Source: Candidatus Magasanikiibacteriota bacterium (lineage in GTDB: Bacteria; Patescibacteriota; Patescibacteriia; Magasanikbacterales; GWA2-37-8). From it: DNA of 64,000 bases. The stretch lies in assembly GCA_963802255.1 (NCBI GenBank), contig CAWDHY010000001.1, positions 555,842 through 619,841 of the forward strand, in the 5' to 3' direction. Under the pieces are notes generated by a model. The model was not told where the DNA came from and did not search any database. It saw only the letters and a program-made list of their open reading frames with translations. This document shows, one piece after another, positions 1 through 63,611 of the stretch (positions within the stretch are counted from its first letter, which is position 1; every line of letters begins with the position of its first letter). The position numbers were made by a program, and so were the translations under genes.

Positions 1-682
1 TAAAGTCGATACAGGAAATAACCGGCGTGTATACAACTTTCATTCCAATTTTTTTGCATTCACGGCAAATATCAACATCTTCAAACCAGATAAAATATCT
101 CGGATCAAACGCCCAACCAAGTTTATCGTACAGGGTACGTCGCATCAGCATAAATGAACCTCGCACGGTATCAACCTCTTGCTCAACATCATCGTTAAAA
201 TTTTTATACAAATATCCGCTTAGAACATTCGGAAATATGTGATGAATTTTTAGAAGTATTGCTATTTGATCAAAAAGGCCGGGGAAACGTCTTGGTTTTG
301 CTTTTTCATTAAATTTTCCATTTTCATCTACAAGCTTGCAACTGGCGATTCCGACATCATGATGCTCACGCATCCACATAACGATTTTATCCAAACTCCC
401 CTCTTGCAGTCGCATATCCGGATTTAAAAAAAGCAAAAATTCACCTGACGACATCTCCGCTGCCTGATTATTGGCGTGGCCAAAACCGGCATTGTCTGAA
501 TTTTTTATTATTTTTACACTCGGAAAATCTTTAATGACCAAATCTATCGCGCCGTCTTCTGATCCGTTATCAACAACCCACTGTTCAATATCAATATTTT
601 TCACGGCGGACTCCGTGGATTTTAGCTGGTCGGCAATTCTTTCTTTATCGTTATGCGTTACGGTAATAATTGATAGATCCAT
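1..682 (-). CDS. Family 2 (GT2) glycosyltransferase, C-terminus runs off the window edge
   Basis: The reverse-strand ORF starts at ATG (complement of 680-682) and has no stop inside the window. Translation begins MDLSIITVTHNDKERIA...VVDNGSEDG...FLNPDM, with the GT2 D-x-D / 'DNGS' motifs. It is absent from the ORF track because it is truncated. Confidence 0.7.
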   Translation of the reverse strand, partial: MDLSIITVTHNDKERIADQLKSTESAVKNIDIEQWVVDNGSEDGAIDLVIKDFPSVKIIKNSDNAGFGHANNQAAEMSSGEFLLFLNPDMRLQEGSLDKIVMWMREHHDVGIASCKLVDENGKFNEKAKPRRFPGLFDQIAILLKIHHIFPNVLSGYLYKNFNDDVEQEVDTVRGSFMLMRRTLYDKLGWAFDPRYFIWFEDVDICRECKKIGMKVVYTPVISCIDF

Positions 683-2313: not shown

Positions 2314-5088
2314 TTAGATTACAGTGAGCGATCCTCCTTCGCCGAGCAAAATTTTACCGCGCCTTGAAACTTTGCCGGATAATATAAGTTCCGCCAGTTT
2401 ATTTTCTACGCGCTCTTGAAGCGCCCTGCGCATTGGTCTGGCGCCAAATTCGGGATCAAACCCAACCGAAGCGAGAAAATCGAGAGCAGTATCTTCGACC
2501 ACAAGTTCAATTCCTTTGGCCTCAAGATCCTTCGCGACTCGTGTAAGCATTATGCCTGCAATCTTTTTAATATCTTCCATATCAAGCGGTTTAAACAAAA
2601 CTATGCCGTCAAAACGATTTAAAAATTCCGGACGAAAATACTGTTTTAATTCTCCATGTAATAAGTGCTCTTTAATTGAGTCTGAAGAAGCGCCTTCTCT
2701 CATCTGTTCCTGTACATATGAGGTTCCCGCGTTTGACGTGGCAATAATAATAACATTTGTAAAATCTATAACTCTGCCTGTGCTGTCCGTTAACCGGCCG
2801 TCGTCCATCACTTGTAGAAATAAATTCAAAATATCAGGGTCGGCTTTTTCAATTTCATCAAGTAAAAGAAGCGTAAAAGGATGTCGCCGGATAGCTTCAG
2901 TAAGTATTCCCGTCCCCTTTTCACCCGGCGCTCCGATTAACCGATATATTCCGGATTTATCCTGATATTCACTCATATCAATTCGCGTCATCCTTTCTTC
3001 ACCGCCAAAATACACTTGTGAGATAGTTTTAGCCAATTCTGTTTTACCCACACCAGTAGGACCAAGAAATAAAAAGTTGGCTATCGGTCTTTGTTTTGAC
3101 CTAATTTCAACTCTGGCTCGGCGCAACGCGTTCGCCACCAAATCAACAGCTTCATCTTGTCCAATAACACGCTTATGCATTTCTTCCTCCAATTTTAGAA
3201 GCTTGCCGGTCTCATCTGTGGTTACGGAAGTAACCGGAATGCCGGTCTTGTCCGCAATAATAAATGCAATTTCTTCAGATGTTACCAGGGTATCGGCCCC
3301 TTTTTTTGAACGCGCATATCCCGCGGCTTCGCTCGCAATTTCAAGCGCACTGCCCGGTAAATATGTTTCATGCAGATACCGCGCCGACAACTGAACGGTT
3401 TTTTCAACGGCGCTATAGGCGAAAAAGACTTGATTTTTATACTCTAACGCTCCAATTTTTGATTCGACAACCTGTATTGCCTGATTTTCGTCCATCTCCT
3501 TAATATCAATTTTTGTAAATACGTTAGATAGCGATGTATCGGATACATGACGCGCATATTCTTCATCAGTTGTTGTTGCTATCGTCAGAAAATTTCCACC
3601 TTTTAAATATTCGGCTAATGTATCCGCCACATCAAGACTACTTCCCTCACCCGCCGATACACCCACTAGTTCATGAATATTGTGAATAAATAATATTACG
3701 TTTCTTGCCTTCGCTATCTCATTCATTATACCCACTAATCTTTCTATCGCTCCGGCAGGTGTTGTTCCGGCTAATAAAGACGGTACACTAAGTTTAACAA
3801 GGCGCTTATCTTGTAAACGAACCGGTACGTCATCTTCAACCATTCTTTGCGCCAAACCTTCCACAATAGTTCTTTTACCTACGCCGTGAGGCCCAACCAA
3901 AATAACACTCATTGAACCGCCGTCAACGACCCGAAAAATCTCTTCATTTTCTTTCTCTCTTGCGGCGCAATAATCATAGTGACCGAGCTGGGCATACAGC
4001 GTCATGTCTTCGCTTAAAGAATTTAAAAAAGGAGTCGATAAAGCTGTCATCGCTTTATCCATTCCTGTCTTTGACCGATGGCTAGCCGCGCGGGATAATT
4101 TTAAATATTGCCGGTACAAACGCTCCCTTATGCGAGCCCATTCAACAACATTCAGCAGTTGATTTTTCTCAACATTCAAATCATACATCAACTCCTGCAA
4201 AAATGGCGACTGTTTGATTGTAGCAACTAACAATTCGGTAACACTGACGTATTCCTGATGTGCTTCGTAAGCCTCTTCATACGCCCGAAACAAAATTTGT
4301 TGAATATCAGGCGACAGAAGCGGCATTGACGCTGAACTTTGCGTTTTAGCCGGTAAACCATAGGAAGATGAGATGTCATCTTGCAACGCTTTTGCCGGAA
4401 TTCCAAGCCTGATAAATACATTGGAAATGCGATTAAATGAAAGCAATGCGTAAAAAAGATGCTCCGGGGTAACAGTAGGATAATTATTCTTATCGGCAAA
4501 TCTGTATGCTTCGGCTAGAACCGACATTGCTTCATCAGTGAAAGCGCCATTTACTTTATGCCACTTATTTTTTGGAATAGACATGGCCTGAGTCCAATCG
4601 GAAACTATCTGTTGCTCGTGATCTTCACCCAAATCTTTAGCTTTATAATCATATTTTTCGACTAAACCACTTTTTTTTCTTTCCACAATCACGCGGTACC
4701 ATAAAGCACACAAGAAAATCAGACCCAGCCAAAATAAAAATTTATACTGTCCGTCAAGCGCAAAAAAAACTTCCGGCCACATATCCGGTGATGAAACAAA
4801 ATTCTTCACCAATCCGCTTTTATAAATTAAAAATAAAAACCATACCCATGAATTAAGCCATAATACAATCAGTGTGATGCGGCGGATTTTATTCCAAATT
4901 CTTCTGCCGTTTAAAAGCGCAAGATTGTATCTTGTGAGCGGATAATCCCAGAACAACCACCGGTTTCTTTTCCATACGCCAAGAGACGACGTCTTGCAGA
5001 CAGAGCATTTCCGTAAACCAACCAGACCGGTTCCTTTGCACGACGGACAAGATAAGACATTAAGCTGTGGTAACTCTTCAAACATCAT
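2314..5088 (-). CDS. ClpC/ClpB-like double-AAA+ ATPase with N-terminal zinc ribbon and two TM helices
   Basis: 924 aa. N-terminus has CPSC...CSVC (C4 zinc ribbon) followed by two hydrophobic helices. Clp_N-like repeats follow (TPEHLFYALLS). AAA-1 Walker A is GPHGVGKR; AAA-2 Walker A is GPTGVGKT, with the sensor/arginine region ...GARPMRRALQ. Confidence 0.8.
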   Translation of the reverse strand: MMFEELPQLNVLSCPSCKGTGLVGLRKCSVCKTSSLGVWKRNRWLFWDYPLTRYNLALLNGRRIWNKIRRITLIVLWLNSWVWFLFLIYKSGLVKNFVSSPDMWPEVFFALDGQYKFLFWLGLIFLCALWYRVIVERKKSGLVEKYDYKAKDLGEDHEQQIVSDWTQAMSIPKNKWHKVNGAFTDEAMSVLAEAYRFADKNNYPTVTPEHLFYALLSFNRISNVFIRLGIPAKALQDDISSSYGLPAKTQSSASMPLLSPDIQQILFRAYEEAYEAHQEYVSVTELLVATIKQSPFLQELMYDLNVEKNQLLNVVEWARIRERLYRQYLKLSRAASHRSKTGMDKAMTALSTPFLNSLSEDMTLYAQLGHYDYCAAREKENEEIFRVVDGGSMSVILVGPHGVGKRTIVEGLAQRMVEDDVPVRLQDKRLVKLSVPSLLAGTTPAGAIERLVGIMNEIAKARNVILFIHNIHELVGVSAGEGSSLDVADTLAEYLKGGNFLTIATTTDEEYARHVSDTSLSNVFTKIDIKEMDENQAIQVVESKIGALEYKNQVFFAYSAVEKTVQLSARYLHETYLPGSALEIASEAAGYARSKKGADTLVTSEEIAFIIADKTGIPVTSVTTDETGKLLKLEEEMHKRVIGQDEAVDLVANALRRARVEIRSKQRPIANFLFLGPTGVGKTELAKTISQVYFGGEERMTRIDMSEYQDKSGIYRLIGAPGEKGTGILTEAIRRHPFTLLLLDEIEKADPDILNLFLQVMDDGRLTDSTGRVIDFTNVIIIATSNAGTSYVQEQMREGASSDSIKEHLLHGELKQYFRPEFLNRFDGIVLFKPLDMEDIKKIAGIMLTRVAKDLEAKGIELVVEDTALDFLASVGFDPEFGARPMRRALQERVENKLAELILSGKVSRRGKILLGEGGSLTVI

Positions 5089-5913: not shown

Positions 5914-6818
5914 ATCTTAATTACTGCTCGCAATTTAGCGCTTCTGGAACGCCTGTTGCCCTTCAGCTCATTTGCTTGCGGGCAAATTGGTTTTTTATTA
6001 ATTAATTCAATTTGCTTGCCGGCAATACCGGCGAAAAATTGCTTAACAATTCTATCCTCGAGTGAATGAAATGTTATTACTGCCAATTTTCCGCCAGGCG
6101 AGAGCAGGTCAATCGCTTGAGGCAATGCTTGTTTTAATGACTCAAGTTCATGATTTACCGCTATGCGCAATGCTTGAAATACTTTTGTTGCCGGGTGTGA
6201 ACCGCCTATCCAAGGAATTTCCTTGTCACTTTGCAGTTTGCTCTTGTATACCGACAGGACTATATCAACGAGCTGTTTAGTTGATAAAATCAACTCAACC
6301 TTTCTCAATGTTACAATTTCTTTTGCAATTTCTTCTGCAAATTTTTCTTCCCCAAATTGCTTAAAAATCTTTTTCAATTCCGGCTCACTATAATTATTTA
6401 AAATATCTGACGCTTTTTCTCTCGTGGCTTCATAGGGGTCGAACCTCATATCTAATAACTCGTCTTTATCAAATGAAAATCCCCTCCCCCTTTCCTCAAA
6501 TTGCGGAGATGACCACCCAAGATCCATGATAATTACATCCGCATTTTTGAACCCGTTCGCTTCTGCAATATTTTTTAAATCCTTAAAATTTGCTTTAGCA
6601 AAGGTAACTTGTTCTCCAAATTTGTATAAGTACCTTTTTGCCCTAAGCAGAGATTCCGGGTCAGTATCAATGCCGAATAATTTACCTTTTTCTCCGACAG
6701 CTTCGAGAAAGGCTTCAGCATGACCACCATCGCCCAAGGTGCAATCTATTACCACATCTCCCTGTTCTGGTTTTATCAATTGAATTATTTCATTTAAAAG
6801 TACTGGTTCGTGTCTCAT
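5910..6818 (-). CDS. rsmH: 16S rRNA (cytosine1402-N4)-methyltransferase RsmH (MraW)
   Basis: Has HxPVLL...DCTLGDGGHAE...SFDK...and the C-terminal RsmH domain. The ORF-track start (6905) would add a 29-aa Lys-rich extension that overlaps mraZ. The internal start MRHEPVLL at 6818 abuts the mraZ stop and is more plausible. Confidence 0.85.
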   Translation of the reverse strand: MRHEPVLLNEIIQLIKPEQGDVVIDCTLGDGGHAEAFLEAVGEKGKLFGIDTDPESLLRAKRYLYKFGEQVTFAKANFKDLKNIAEANGFKNADVIIMDLGWSSPQFEERGRGFSFDKDELLDMRFDPYEATREKASDILNNYSEPELKKIFKQFGEEKFAEEIAKEIVTLRKVELILSTKQLVDIVLSVYKSKLQSDKEIPWIGGSHPATKVFQALRIAVNHELESLKQALPQAIDLLSPGGKLAVITFHSLEDRIVKQFFAGIAGKQIELINKKPICPQANELKGNRRSRSAKLRAVIKI

Positions 6819-41016: not shown

Positions 41017-41148
41017 ATTTCTGTAAGATTAACTAATGTATCAACTATAATCTTATATCAAATATTAAAAAAAGAAAAGACCCGCCCACGCTTTATACAA
41101 GTATACTGGCGTTTGCGGGTCTTTGCCAAAAAACGACTTCGCGCTTTG

Positions 41149-41541
41149 CTACAACAGCCTCCTGATCCCATTGGCATCTCCCTTTTCGCCCGATACGGCG
41201 CAAACTCGAGGCCAGCTATTTCTGACACGGGCCGGTATGGGCAGGTACTTTTTCAGAATTCTGAGCTGGTGCAGGTTCTCGGACACCTCTTTTTCTGACA
41301 GCACTCCGTTCCGGACAAAGAAGAAAACATCCAGCCACAAATCTTTGGCCGGAGCGTCGTTCCCGCTCTCCCTTTCCGGACAATTTCGCCTGCCAGAAGC
41401 AATTTCAATCAGATCGCTAAGCGCCATCTTCACCTCCCTTTCCGAAATTTCCCTGCGGCCCATTGCGCCGCGAATTTCACGCCATTCACCATATGCTGTT
41501 TCTTTGCCAACCTTTACGAGCAACGACATCATCCTCGCCAT
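41149..41541 (-). CDS. Hypothetical protein encoded in a GC-rich insertion
   Basis: 131 aa from the ATG at 41541. It has a strong SD (GGAGGTG-cact-ATG). The protein is charged and helical: MARMMSLLVKVGKETAYGEWREIRG...LSDLIEIASGRRN.... It has only a weak, unconvincing resemblance to four-helix-bundle (23S-IVS) proteins. Local GC is far above the flanks. Confidence 0.4.
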   Translation of the reverse strand: MARMMSLLVKVGKETAYGEWREIRGAMGRREISEREVKMALSDLIEIASGRRNCPERESGNDAPAKDLWLDVFFFVRNGVLSEKEVSENLHQLRILKKYLPIPARVRNSWPRVCAVSGEKGDANGIRRLL

Positions 41542-41676
41542 AGTGCACCTCCATTCTTGGGCGAAGTCTAATAGTTTTTCACGCACCATTACGCGAAAAA
41601 CCAAAAAAAAGAGCTATTAATAATATAGCACTTTTTTAGATTCGAGACAAAAATTTGACAATAACAAATTAAAAAA

Positions 41677-52659: not shown

Positions 52660-54444
52660 CTACCAGCTGCCTCCACCGCCGCCGCCAAATCCACCGCCCG
52701 ATCCGCCTCCTGAAAAACCGCTTCCGCCGGAAGAAGCGGATGATGATACTGTGGCGCCAAGTGTTGATGCCGCGGCAGTATCAAAACTGGCCAAACTGCT
52801 GGTAAGAAAAAGCGCATTAAACATGCCAGCATGATTCGGGTCTTCATACCACTTCGGCTGAATATTATAAATCCCCTCAAACTGCTTCGCCCATTCTTTT
52901 TCAACTTTCATCACCATGGCATAGGGCAATAATTTCTCAAATCTTTCCGGATTCTTCTCCGGCGCGTTGTGAAATTCAATCCGGGCTTTTTCCGCCACTG
53001 TCATATACAATTTTAATCCGAGAATTTTTTCCTTTGTTTCCGCTCCTTTTTTAGTTAATACCGGCATAATAAAACCGAAAACAATAATAATTATCGCTGA
53101 AAGTGTCAGGGCGAATATACCTAAAAGCCCGAATATCACTCCGATAAAAAATGCCATGAAAAAAACAAAACACCCGCCCGCCAGATATTTCATTTTCATC
53201 ATCCTTGGATTTTTTGCGAAATAACCGTCTGTTGTCAGGTCCTTATACAAATTACCGACGACTTTTTGCATGGTTGATGCAAACTCATATTTAAGTGCGG
53301 ACAATTTAATAACATCTCCTTTTTCAAACAAATTATTCATTATTTCCTTGTCAAAACTTTTTGTCAGATCGTCGGCCGGTTTGAGTTTGGTAAAAATGTA
53401 ATCGCTGTTTTTTAATATCTTTCCGGTTTCTTCCCGTCGAATTTTTAAATAGCCGTTTACAGCCAGTTGAATAATTTGAGCCGAAACATCATGACGGTCG
53501 GCGCGGTTATCATAAAGAGTGCCAACCTCGGCCGGAGCTAAATTATCGGGCGCTTCGTATTCGGGAATAATTGTTCCTCTTCCTTTAGCGTTTTTACCGA
53601 GCTTTTTCCAGCGCCTGTAAAGCCAAATAAAAATAAGTACCGGTAAGAAAATAATGCCATTATCACGAACAATTTCCAGAATAGTCTGAGAAAGAGGCGG
53701 TTTCTGAATAGTCCCGGCCGGCACTCCTATAACCACCGTTAAACCCTCAGCCGGTTTCAAATCAACGGCTTTAAATACTACTACGGAAATCGGATCGTTC
53801 TCATTAAGATCACCTGAGTCATTCAATATTCCGGCAGACATTTCACAAACCTTCGTGCTTCCATACGCTCCGTAATAGCATGTTCGTGTGACATCGCTAT
53901 CCGGCAAATCATTCTCAAAACGGACAATGGTTTCCGCTTCATCAATCGGCACCTGCCAGCCGTTGCCTGTGGCATTCCAATACAATTCATCATGATCATC
54001 AAAATAATTTATCGCTCGTCTGACCGTGTATCGTATGCGGTATGTGTGTTGGCCGGTAATAAGTTTATCCGCATCCCCGATTTTAATTTGCAAATTACTG
54101 CCGGAATATAAAGTGGTAAAAGTGTATGGGTTATTATTTTCGTCAACAACCGATACATCAGACACGCGCAATTTGTAATTTCCGCCCCGTGCTTTGTATC
54201 CGATAATAATATCGCGATATATTCCGTGGCGTTCCGCTTCGCCAAAATTATAAATTATACTTTCCTCAACATTAATACTGGCGTCGCTATGAAGAGAAAT
54301 ATCAGAAATAAATTTATCAATTTTCTCCTGAGCCATAACCGGCCCGGCGAAGGATAAAAAAACTACCACCAACAAACTTACACAAATTTTCTTAAACATA
54401 AATACATTGTTAAAATATGCATATATTGTATCACTTATGCTCAA
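52660..54444 (-). CDS. DUF2207-family membrane protein with a C-terminal Gly/Ser-rich tail
   Basis: Signal/TM, a large extracellular domain, TM segments, and a C-terminal ...[24 protein letters not shown]. The [30 protein letters not shown] region is typical of DUF2207. Confidence 0.55.
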
Positions 54445-54475
54445 AAAATAAAAAAATCCCGCAGAAATTGCGGGA
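54441..54475 (-). terminator. Intrinsic terminator of the zinc-ribbon gene (GC-rich cassette, unit 2)
   Basis: On the minus strand: CCCGCA-ATTTC-TGCGGG followed by TTTTTTTATTTTTT. Confidence 0.65.
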
Positions 54476-54497
54476 TGGCGGGAAAGAACAGGGTTTT

Positions 54498-54773
54498 CTA
54501 GGAGCAGTTGGGGCAGGGCAGGTCGCGGACGCTTCTGCGGTCATCGGCCAGACCGCACTCCGGGCACATCTCCTCGACGATGAGCTCGCCGAAAATGGTG
54601 CACTCCTCCGCTTCCAGGAATACGGCCAGAGATTCGTCCCTGAAGACGAACCGGGCGTAGCCGCGCTTGGCATCTTCGGCATTTTTCCCCAGCTGAAGCC
54701 CGCGAAGGACCTTGCCGGAACGGATATCCGTCATACGGAAGTGCCTCCGATGCTTGTGGGTCTTGCTAGCCAT
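54498..54773 (-). CDS. Hypothetical basic zinc-ribbon protein (GC-rich cassette)
   Basis: 91 aa from the ATG at 54773, with SD AAGGAG-aaatg-ATG. [26 protein letters not shown]...CPECG...CPNCS has a C-terminal C4 zinc ribbon. Local GC is far above the genome average. Confidence 0.5.
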
Positions 54774-54826
54774 CATTTCTCCTTTTTGAGAGCAATAACT
54801 GCCCAAAATTGCACGATTCTGGCCGT

Positions 54827-54855
54827 ATTATAGCACAAAATACGACTTTTGTCAA
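54827..54855 (-). promoter_or_regulatory. Perfect-consensus sigma70 promoter driving the zinc-ribbon gene
   Basis: On the minus strand: TTGACA, a 17-nt spacer, then TATAAT, about 50 nt upstream of the SD/ATG. Confidence 0.6.
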
Positions 54856-54902
54856 CCCCTCACGGACTTTCAATAAATTGCCTCTAACCCAGACAGATAT
54901 TC

Positions 54903-54934
54903 ATAAAAAAACCGGCAGAAAGGGATTCTGCCGG
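54903..54934 (-). terminator. Intrinsic terminator between the two cassette genes
   Basis: On the minus strand: CCGGCAGAA-tccct-TTCTGCCGG followed by TTTTTTTAT. Confidence 0.65.
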
Positions 54935-54964
54935 CCGGAATACTCCGTCAAAAAGGAACGACTG

Positions 54965-55570
54965 TCAGGTGGAGGCCAATCCTTCGGCCTTATTGCAGAC
55001 CGAACAAATGAATTGGCGGGCGGCCGTACTTTTCGGACGGCCGAAGAGCCATTCGGCGAAAATCGCCGAGAGGATGGTACTGCTGTCAGCCGGATCGAAA
55101 AGCCGGTCGGCGTTCAGCGTTTCATCGGTTTCTTCTGCCAGAAAGTCGGAAGAGGTGTCCGGCGGGTAAACGAGGAATGTCTTGTCCTGACGAAAGACCT
55201 CGACGGACAGAATCTGTTTTGAACCGATGAGACAAAACAGTGAAACCACATTGTCACTGAACATACCGGAAAGAGCCCGCAGGACTTCGGAATGAGGCTG
55301 AAGCTGGTCCAACCAGAACGACAGTTCGTTGCGGTCGATAGGCGTTGCGCACCGGCTGAGCAAATCCGTCCAATCGGCGTTCTGAACTTCATCGGTGAGA
55401 TCGGACCCGTAGATATTCATGAACTCGCGCATGTCCGGCTCGTCGGTGGTGGCGTTTGCCCGGCATTGGCGGTTTAGCCAGGAGAGCCTCCACTCCTTTG
55501 CTTCCGGGTGATTCCGCCTGTATGCGGATGTGCCGGCAAGCAGTTCCTTTCCCGAAATGTCGGTTATCAT
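54965..55570 (-). CDS. Hypothetical acidic protein (GC-rich cassette)
   Basis: 201 aa with SD AAGGAGGGG-ctttaa-ATG. Asp/Glu-rich with several Trp residues and no recognised catalytic motif. A weak resemblance to SUKH/Smi1-type immunity proteins is speculative. Confidence 0.5.
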   Translation of the reverse strand: MITDISGKELLAGTSAYRRNHPEAKEWRLSWLNRQCRANATTDEPDMREFMNIYGSDLTDEVQNADWTDLLSRCATPIDRNELSFWLDQLQPHSEVLRALSGMFSDNVVSLFCLIGSKQILSVEVFRQDKTFLVYPPDTSSDFLAEETDETLNADRLFDPADSSTILSAIFAEWLFGRPKSTAARQFICSVCNKAEGLAST

Positions 55571-55592
55571 TTAAAGCCCCTCCTTTTTTGTT

Positions 55593-55623
55593 TTCAACCA
55601 ATATGAAATTATCACCGGTTGAA
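55593..55623 (-). promoter_or_regulatory. Promoter with palindromic operator upstream of the acidic-protein gene
   Basis: On the minus strand: TTGACT, 15-17 nt, then GATAAT. A 7-bp inverted repeat TTCAACC-N17-GGTTGAA overlaps the spacer and -10. Confidence 0.5.
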
Positions 55624-55650
55624 GAAAAAGTCAAATATATTATAAACTAA

Positions 55651-55680
55651 AAAACTCCGGACCAAAATCCGAAGTTTTCC
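55651..55680 (-). terminator. Intrinsic terminator after the upstream membrane-protein gene (right cassette boundary)
   Basis: On the minus strand: AAAACTTCGGA-tttTgg-TCCGGAGTTTT followed by TTAGTTT. Confidence 0.55.
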
Positions 55681-55690
55681 CAAAATAATA

Positions 55691-56296
55691 TTATTTAATC
55701 GTTACTGTCACTTCTTTATCCGGCGCCATATAGCTGACCAATCGCTTTATCTCCTCTTTCGCCTTATTATTTGCCGCTTCCATCATCTCGGTGGAGGTCG
55801 CGGCACTCTCCGCTTGCCTTATTATCTCAGCCATGGCTTGGTTATAACCGTCATCATTTTCCAAAATACGTTTTAATATCCCCTGCTTATTTTCTACACT
55901 TATGTCGCCTACCAATCGGGAATTAAATATTTCCGCCCCCGGAACAGCTACCGTAATATCATTGCCGGTCATTTGAATATCATCGGCTTTCATTTCTTCC
56001 AAATCAACGCCGAGATTCACTTCCACCACAGCAGAAGCTTTTATTTCCTGGCCCCAAAATAATTTTTTCCAGATGCTGGCGTCATTGTCTTTTATCGTCA
56101 CAGCAACAGTGGACACGCTGGTTTCGGTTACCAAGAAACCGCGCTCGCGCAAGGCCGATAATATCGTCTGCCCGGAAACAACGCGCTCAGGCTTTGATTC
56201 TTTTGTTAGAAGCCAGCCGATAAAAACGCCAAACGCTAAAATTACAGCAACCAAAAATATCGCTCTAATCAATGCTTTCATATTCATTATTCGCAA
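55691..56296 (-). CDS. Hypothetical membrane-anchored protein (possibly DUF4230-like)
   Basis: 201 aa with an N-terminal TM helix and a soluble domain. No catalytic motif. Confidence 0.4.
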   Translation of the reverse strand: MRIMNMKALIRAIFLVAVILAFGVFIGWLLTKESKPERVVSGQTILSALRERGFLVTETSVSTVAVTIKDNDASIWKKLFWGQEIKASAVVEVNLGVDLEEMKADDIQMTGNDITVAVPGAEIFNSRLVGDISVENKQGILKRILENDDGYNQAMAEIIRQAESAATSTEMMEAANNKAKEEIKRLVSYMAPDKEVTVTIK

Positions 56297-63215: not shown

Positions 63216-63611
63216 TTATTCAATGTTACGTCTTAACGATTTCACCCGCGAACGCCGTATTTTAGATTCCAATCGGCGCAATTTGGACGCGCGGGTCGGC
63301 CTGGTCGGACGGCGTTTTTTTGGCACATGAAGAGCCCGGGCAACAAGCGCTTCCAGCCGGTCAACGGCCAGCGCCCGGTTTTGTGATTGTGTTCGCTCTT
63401 CTTCAGACACAACCACCACTTCATCTTTAGAATTTATCCGACTGGCCAGCTTCGCCCGCACTCTCGCTTTTTCTTCAAAAGATAAAACACGCGAACGCCC
63501 CAACGGCCAATGCACAGTCGCTTTGGTCGATGTCTTATTCACATTCTGCCCGCCTGCGCCGGATGAGCGGGAAAAAGTGATGCGGAGTTCATTGCCAGGT
63601 ATGTATATCAC
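63216..63611 (-). CDS. arfB: Alternative ribosome-rescue factor ArfB (peptidyl-tRNA hydrolase domain, GGQ)
   Basis: 131 aa. SRSSGAGGQNVNKTSTKA (GGQ motif) and a basic C-terminal tail. Confidence 0.8.
   Translation of the reverse strand: MIYIPGNELRITFSRSSGAGGQNVNKTSTKATVHWPLGRSRVLSFEEKARVRAKLASRINSKDEVVVVSEEERTQSQNRALAVDRLEALVARALHVPKKRRPTRPTRASKLRRLESKIRRSRVKSLRRNIE

Follow-up and report, generated by a model that had tools for sequence, protein, structure and literature searches.

Hypervariable, recombining chromosomal loci, such as those of allelic immunity, specificity and antigen genes, form a familiar evolutionary class, and type II toxin-antitoxin (TA) modules are another well-known arrangement in which two small genes lie side by side, the one for the acidic protein first. 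Here, we compare with both a locus of two adjacent minus-strand genes, A and B, in a 64,000-nt stretch of a Candidatus Magasanikiibacteriota genome (referred to as the window), using related loci from other metagenome lineages (L-numbered below). We find that the locus is a resident part of the chromosome in a small Magasanikbacteria-like clade of the Candidate Phyla Radiation (CPR; Patescibacteria) and not a recent import. Our favored reading, for which we judge the chances to be about even, is that of a strongly expressed, hypervariable CPR locus in which A would act as a recognition or neutralization protein, and B as its optional zinc-ribbon partner, in some form of genetic conflict.

The residency of the locus is evident from its surroundings. 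In the window, L001, L002, L003 (with L004 to L008), L013, L016 and L021, which we treat as seven syntenic lineages, A is found immediately downstream of one and the same DUF4230 gene, and every ∼200-aa relative of A with enough flanking sequence, L015 excepted, sits at this site. Since the loci were recovered by searching for A, its occupancy of the site in 7/7 related lineages refers to a sample in which empty sites are invisible. The DUF4230 flank is 62 to 94% identical among the seven, and the neighborhood shared with the window includes genes for CorA, a 229-aa lipoprotein, a PAS/GAF kinase, a response regulator and GatCA. B directly follows A in five lineages (the window, L002, L013, L016 and L017) and was, in this small sample, never seen without A. 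L001, L003 and L021 possess A and lack both B and the DUF2207 gene, the latter, as a downstream neighbor, being restricted to lineages with B. The co-occurrence of the two genes in other genomes, which the original prediction had suggested looking for, was seen in four further lineages. The flanks consist of conserved genes (DUF4230, DUF2207, CorA, PAS kinase) and not of a variable defense island or mobile context. Mobility or integrase genes, flanking repeats and an adjacent tRNA gene were all absent at the window locus. Neither 50,697 phage records, 72,556 plasmid records nor IMG/VR contigs contained relatives, and scans of metagenome contigs found none either.

At this conserved site, every comparison shows A and B to have diverged more than the other genes. 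Between the window and L002, identity is 53% for A and 48% for B, as compared with 84% for the DUF4230 and 78% for the DUF2207 protein; the corresponding rates of nonsynonymous substitution (dN) are 0.40 and 0.47 versus 0.10 and 0.13 in the flanking genes. Similarly, A is 61% identical between L001 and L003 (dN 0.32), where most neighbors reach 83 to 96% and GatC 71%. Alleles are 35 to 60% identical between lineages, and the identity matrix of A departs from that of the flanks: the A protein of the window is 56% identical to that of L001, versus 53% and 47% to those of its near relatives L002 and L013.

An alignment of L003, L021 and L001 reveals a mosaic. In the 150 nt upstream of A, L003 agrees with L001 at 41 informative sites and with L021 at 7. 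Within codons 1 to 45 of A, it agrees with L001 at a single site and with L021 at 33, and in the C-terminal third at 3 and 53 sites, respectively, while all three sequences differ from each other in the middle of the gene; the variable central half of A comprises residues 46 to 135. Moreover, the synonymous divergence (dS) between L003 and L021 is 0.16 to 0.24 in the shared segments of A versus 0.58 to 1.63 in the flanking genes. The discordant site patterns and the contrast in dS place one breakpoint at the Shine-Dalgarno site or the start codon, and further ones inside A. In other words, A alleles are mosaics made by homologous recombination. Variation of the type generated by diversity-generating retroelements was considered and set aside, as the differences span half of A, affect all residue types and include insertions and deletions. 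Recombination is not confined to A: across the whole 12.6-kb loci, L001 and L003 show a patchwork in which blocks of 93 to 99% identity alternate with blocks of about 80%, arguing for frequent recombination along the entire region. Around positions 3600 to 4570 of L001, a segment has been replaced outright, with CorA in L001 and other genes in L003.

The nearly identical strains L016 and L017 offer a view of the short term. Their A genes differ by seven synonymous and no nonsynonymous changes, and their B genes at 16/267 nt, in clusters. A is functional and under purifying selection within one allele. Given its mosaic structure and this 7-to-0 ratio, we regard A as constrained within an allele, and its long-term divergence as largely the result of exchange of old, divergent allele segments.

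The second unusual property of the locus is its base composition. As originally predicted, GC content rises abruptly over positions 54480 to 55590, to 0.542 versus a window average of 0.403. In 300-nt windows, it climbs from 0.35 (54200 to 54499) to a peak of 0.59 (54500 to 54799) and returns to about 0.38 to 0.41 by 55500 to 55899; in 400-nt windows, the maximum of 0.55 lies about 3.9 standard deviations over the mean, the largest deviation in the 64 kb. Codon usage deviates accordingly, with a GC content at third codon positions (GC3) of 0.668 in A (z = 7.1) and 0.796 in B (z = 10.2), compared with 0.376 ± 0.041 in 35 other genes. Both C and G are elevated at third positions (C3 and G3), and amino acids with AT-rich codons (FYMINK) are reduced in the GC-rich genes (0.21 versus 0.32). 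Across eight lineages, i.e., the seven syntenic ones plus L015, the GC content of A (0.49 to 0.59) correlates with that of the host (0.37 to 0.46; r = 0.91) and exceeds it by 0.11 to 0.15 in 8/8 cases. Distant relatives of A are likewise enriched over their genome or locus (0.61 versus 0.47 in L018; 0.51 versus 0.42 in L011), an exception being L009 from Uhrbacteria, whose genome is itself 66% GC. The GC excess, for which third codon positions are chiefly responsible, is thus long-standing in the gene family.

Synonymous sites between orthologs are saturated and a neutral import would have ameliorated, so some force must keep these genes GC-rich. We ruled out translational selection as the source of the high GC3: neither DnaK (0.36) nor ribosomal protein L9 (0.39) stands out, which argues against a high-expression codon bias of this genome, and C3 and G3 are raised alike. 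The force would instead be specific to the locus, candidates being a recombination-associated increase in GC, selection for a stable, highly expressed or translated mRNA, or both. A recombination hot spot would raise GC3. In bacteria, recombination is associated with higher GC content; whether biased gene conversion (PMC4450053) or more effective selection (PMC11879095) is the cause is debated.

Two other GC-rich genes or units were noticed in the window. At 41065 to 41665 on the minus strand, a second self-contained unit (GC 0.52 to 0.53 versus 0.40) has a promoter-like TTGTCA-17-(TGc)TATATT sequence, a strong hairpin plus T-run at its end, and a 146-aa open reading frame (ORF; 41149 to 41589) with no clear Shine-Dalgarno site. 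This unit matched neither Pfam, nor Rfam at E<1, nor tmRNA, and comparison of its ORF with A found no kinship; it may represent an undescribed RNA or a further GC-rich orphan gene. The third (63216 to 63611, minus strand; GC 0.52) encodes an RF-1 domain protein (GGQ, ArfB-like). In addition, a long Gly/Ser-rich tail forms the end of the DUF2207 protein (52660 to 52760, minus strand) and probably explains a local GC bump at 52.6 to 53.0 kb.

Inspection of the intergenic regions agreed with the original prediction that each gene has its own Shine-Dalgarno site, promoter and terminator and forms a self-contained transcription unit (Table 1). The promoter of B is the sole 12/12 consensus match in the 64 kb and, spacer sequence included, almost unchanged in L002, L013, L016 and L017. 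That of A went unscored in the consensus scan owing to its weak −10 hexamer, although L001, L002, L003 and L021 keep its −35 element (TTGACA/T) and TGn motif. Terminators were located at 54936 to 54910 after A and at 54476 to 54456 after B. The stem of the terminator after A is preserved through compensatory changes in L001, L003 and L021, and a hairpin with a T-run occurs at the same place after B in L002, L013 and L016. Overall, the window and L002 align well from the upstream terminator through the promoters, Shine-Dalgarno sites and terminators of both genes. A and B are two independent single-gene units that carry signals for strong constitutive expression. The first bases of the B transcript (54818 to 54829) also show a 12-nt perfect complementarity to the B coding sequence (54619 to 54630), which is not conserved in orthologs and was treated as a chance match.

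Table 1. Genes and predicted regulatory signals of the A/B locus, in order of transcription (window coordinates)
Feature	Position	Strand	Basis
DUF4230 membrane protein gene, conserved upstream anchor	55691..56296	-	Family match, synteny
Intrinsic terminator of DUF4230 gene, upstream edge of unit	55649..55680	-	Near-identical in L002
Promoter of A, TTGACT-17-(TGa)TAATTT, extended -10 type	55606..55634	-	Read from sequence
Gene A, 201 aa, isoelectric point (pI) 4.57	54965..55570	-	Coding pattern, orthologs
Intrinsic terminator after A, 11-bp stem + T-run	54903..54936	-	
Promoter of B, TTGACA-17-TATAAT + TG extension	54827..54855	-	Consensus scan
Gene B, 91 aa (MASK...)	54498..54773	-	Shine-Dalgarno spacing, ortholog starts
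Intrinsic terminator after B, downstream edge of GC-rich segment	54449..54476	-	
DUF2207 membrane protein gene, downstream flank	52660..54444	-	Family match

A and B are real protein-coding genes. Four orthologs of A differ at 0.26 to 0.39 per site at codon positions 1 and 2 versus 0.55 to 0.65 at position 3, with 53 to 68 synonymous codon changes per pair, and the length of the ORF is stable at 198 to 204 codons. A search of the segment against Rfam returned nothing beyond subthreshold, terminator-like matches. Folding z-scores of the coding regions of A and B in nine orthologs (+0.6 to −3.2) stay within the limits set by 25 control genes (+1.8 to −3.5), which together with the Rfam result rules out a structured RNA. 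The whole A transcript, with its leader and terminator hairpins, scores −6.4 and its coding region alone −2.8, consistent with a contribution of these hairpins to the strong value.

Protein A is acidic, as had been predicted, and we read it as cytoplasmic, having seen by eye neither a signal peptide nor a membrane segment in its sequences or its model. Its C-terminal motif ILSAIFAEWxxGRPKSxxARxFICSVC is conserved, and the core common to 21 A-family sequences consists of an N-terminal helix (WLxRxRxAN...PD), an ATP(I/L) segment and a C-terminal FAEWxxGRPKxxxARxFIC. An AlphaFold2 model built on the 21-sequence alignment (predicted local distance difference test [pLDDT] score 88.5, predicted template modeling [pTM] score 0.83) shows, from the N to the C terminus, helices over residues 7 to 105, a three-strand meander (109 to 135), a VYPPDT turn, a lower-confidence acidic stretch (about 141 to 160) and a helical hairpin (163 to 195). 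Fold searches with this model gave no convincing match, and Foldseek against viral models gave nothing; the middle of the protein was compared with UEV/RWD/UBC-like alpha-beta domains (Tsg101 UEV, PDB 2f0r_A).

The original prediction could not place either protein in a known family, and database searches left this unchanged: A and B matched nothing in Pfam, PHROGs, PADLOC or NCBIfam, PADLOC also recognized none of six A homologs, and neither protein has a paralog elsewhere in the window. A collection of 5.8 billion protein clusters contained three relatives of A besides A itself and one of B. A HMMER profile search for A yielded 11 matches at E<=1e-3 among 1.84 billion representatives, one of them a spurious low-complexity hit, and a second profile search added a subfamily of 331 to 358 aa, the members of which, where named, are from Candidatus Uhrbacteria and from an unclassified bacterium. 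The best named relatives are from metagenome-assembled genomes of Candidatus Magasanikbacteria, and a scan of the GTDB representative genomes found two Magasanikbacteria only.

Some distant homologs of A occur in other settings. In L018 (5085 to 6378), a 125-aa homolog is the last in a block of three same-strand genes, all GC-rich (0.54 to 0.61 versus 0.47 for the locus) and none with a family match; the block ends beside a tRNA-Glu gene (6488 to 6560), a setting that resembles an island more than that of the window does. In L011 (771 to 2346), a 358-aa homolog precedes a GC-rich 151-aa orphan gene, which is followed by a UvrD/PD-(D/E)XK helicase-nuclease gene. This pair is seen again in L012.

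Protein B had been described as a basic 91-aa protein with a C4 zinc ribbon. Length and ribbon hold; basic character is limited to a tail within the first ∼20 residues, the overall pI being 7.7 (5.0 to 8.3 in orthologs). Translation most likely starts at the second ATG (54773), resulting in 91 aa, because the Shine-Dalgarno spacing is normal there and orthologs begin with MAS or MAR; the public gene call (P0005, 78 aa, MTDIRSG start) looks too short. The protein has a conserved R-x-T/D-x-R-S/T-G and RDESL core and a C-terminal CPECG-x13-CPNC, in which C71, C74, C88 and C91 are invariant in 5/5 sequences and the knuckles are separated by 13 residues in the window (12 to 14 across the five). With two invariant CxxC knuckles and a short spacer, B conforms to the C4 zinc ribbon pattern and is predicted to bind metal. 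Its profile retrieved only generic zinc-ribbon matches (E 0.4 to 4). B shares terminal CPxCG ... CPxC knuckles, 11 to 13 residues apart, with small C4 zinc-ribbon proteins such as HVO_2753-like proteins and the ‘Zn-ribbon RNA-binding protein involved in translation’ (PDB 9fhl_C, 6skf_Az), yet the match is nonsignificant (E 0.5 to 4) and B has an extra N-terminal part of ∼65 residues with conserved motifs of its own. A weak match to PacI (E 0.44) raised the question of an HNH nuclease, which we rejected as there is no conserved histidine after the first knuckle.

What might these proteins do? Conserved flanks, allele classes that are under purifying selection inside, and a partner that never occurs alone are features of conflict genes, and they lead us to favor A as the specificity protein. 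On this proposal, A would be a specificity-bearing binding or neutralizing protein. Wherever B occurs, it would work inside the cell as the zinc-ribbon partner of A and probably bind nucleic acid via the basic tail. The overall evolutionary pattern, i.e., fast divergence, mosaic recombination and the absence of B without A, fits a conflict-type gene.

Several points weigh against this proposal. The ratio dN/dS is raised (0.14 to 0.40 versus 0.04 to 0.18 in the flanks) and stays below 1, which falls short of demonstrating positive selection. Slow evolution is the usual course for highly expressed proteins. Sampling is limited, with A known from eight lineages and B from five. Lastly, recombination-linked shifts in GC3 generally amount to a few points, not 15 to 40; a recombination-linked force alone is probably insufficient for the GC excess, and selection on the mRNA may add to it.

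A more specific version of the conflict proposal, possible in our view though rather doubtful, is that of an undescribed, CPR-specific module for conflict or self-recognition. Such a module would combine an apparently new fold in A, with specificity by allele class, and B as an optional effector or regulator; it would be nonoperonic, have its GC content kept 11 to 15 points above that of the host by a locus-specific process, and have its alleles shuffled between lineages.

The strong expression signals invite another explanation, namely, a clade-specific, abundant housekeeping pair, with B as a zinc-ribbon protein of nucleoid, ribosome or RNA, A as an acidic chaperone or regulator, and GC content selected for mRNA stability and maximal expression against an AT-rich cellular background. 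The best promoter of the window, strong Shine-Dalgarno sites, terminators for each gene, a fixed chromosomal position and purifying selection inside an allele would all suit such a pair, as would the fact that the ribbon of B weakly resembles zinc-ribbon proteins associated with archaeal ribosomes (E 0.5 to 4). We nevertheless consider it unlikely. Abundant housekeeping proteins are slow to evolve, but no genes of the locus change faster than A and B; B can be dispensed with, as L001, L003 and L021 show; the family is extremely rare, as seen from the 11 profile matches; and the expected high-expression genes for DnaK and L9 are not GC3-rich.

A classical type II TA module, in which A would be the acidic antitoxin and B the small toxin, seems distinctly unlikely to us. 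Gene order and sizes do fit, both genes diverge fast together, and the occurrence of A alone but never of B alone is reminiscent of orphan antitoxins. However, A is set apart from B by a conserved terminator and by a consensus promoter that serves B separately, ruling out an operon; no TA or defense family in Pfam, NCBIfam or PADLOC was matched; the position is syntenically fixed and has no mobile context; and driving B from the strongest promoter of the window would be odd for a toxin.

The original prediction had favored a horizontally acquired cassette, suggested to be a toxin/immunity, addiction or small anti-phage module. A role in toxin/immunity or defense may exist, but neither protein is homologous to TA or defense families. 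A recent transfer from a GC-rich donor would account for the abrupt shift in GC and GC3, an atypical composition, and could draw on the distant homologs in the 66% GC Uhrbacteria genome and in the three-gene block next to tRNA-Glu. It is contradicted by synteny, with one site in seven lineages next to the shared DUF4230 gene. Conserved regulatory DNA, saturated synonymous sites, a GC content of A that follows that of the host, edges free of repeats, integrase or tRNA genes, and the lack of relatives in phage or plasmid records argue against it as well; we regard it as very improbable. That the segment is a structured noncoding RNA or an assembly chimera, as its high GC content in an AT-rich genome and the z-score of the hairpin-containing A transcript might have suggested, has a probability close to nil given the codon-position pattern, the conserved ORF lengths, the subthreshold, terminator-like Rfam matches, the control-like folding of the coding regions and the recurrence of the same arrangement in independent assemblies, which also speaks against the chimeric join that the original prediction had named as a potential refutation.

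When part of an AT-rich genome is GC-rich, recent horizontal transfer is the usual interpretation. It fails here: the excess is of long standing, is inherited and rises with the GC content of the host. The locus thus offers a clean natural setting in which to ask how local GC content is maintained, be it by recombination-linked bias, more effective selection or selection on expression. It also adds two protein families without recognizable relatives, including, with A, a confidently predicted fold without a convincing match among solved structures. Tiny CPR genomes should retain few dispensable genes; if the products act in conflict with phage, host or kin, they would provide an entry into the poorly known interaction biology of episymbionts.

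How, then, does the locus compare with described systems? With type II TA modules it shares two adjacent small genes, the acidic one first, a small partner that is never alone and fast divergence; it differs in having separate promoters and terminators, no TA homology, a fixed nonmobile site and, in the 201-aa A, a family without recognizable relatives. Because the operon and the homology expected of such systems were not found, we file A/B under neither type II TA modules nor catalogued defense systems. With hypervariable recombining loci it has in common conserved flanks, divergent allele classes, intragenic mosaics with breakpoints at gene borders and purifying selection within an allele. 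Its products, as we read them, are cytoplasmic, and its maintained GC excess of 11 to 15 points is unusual for that class.

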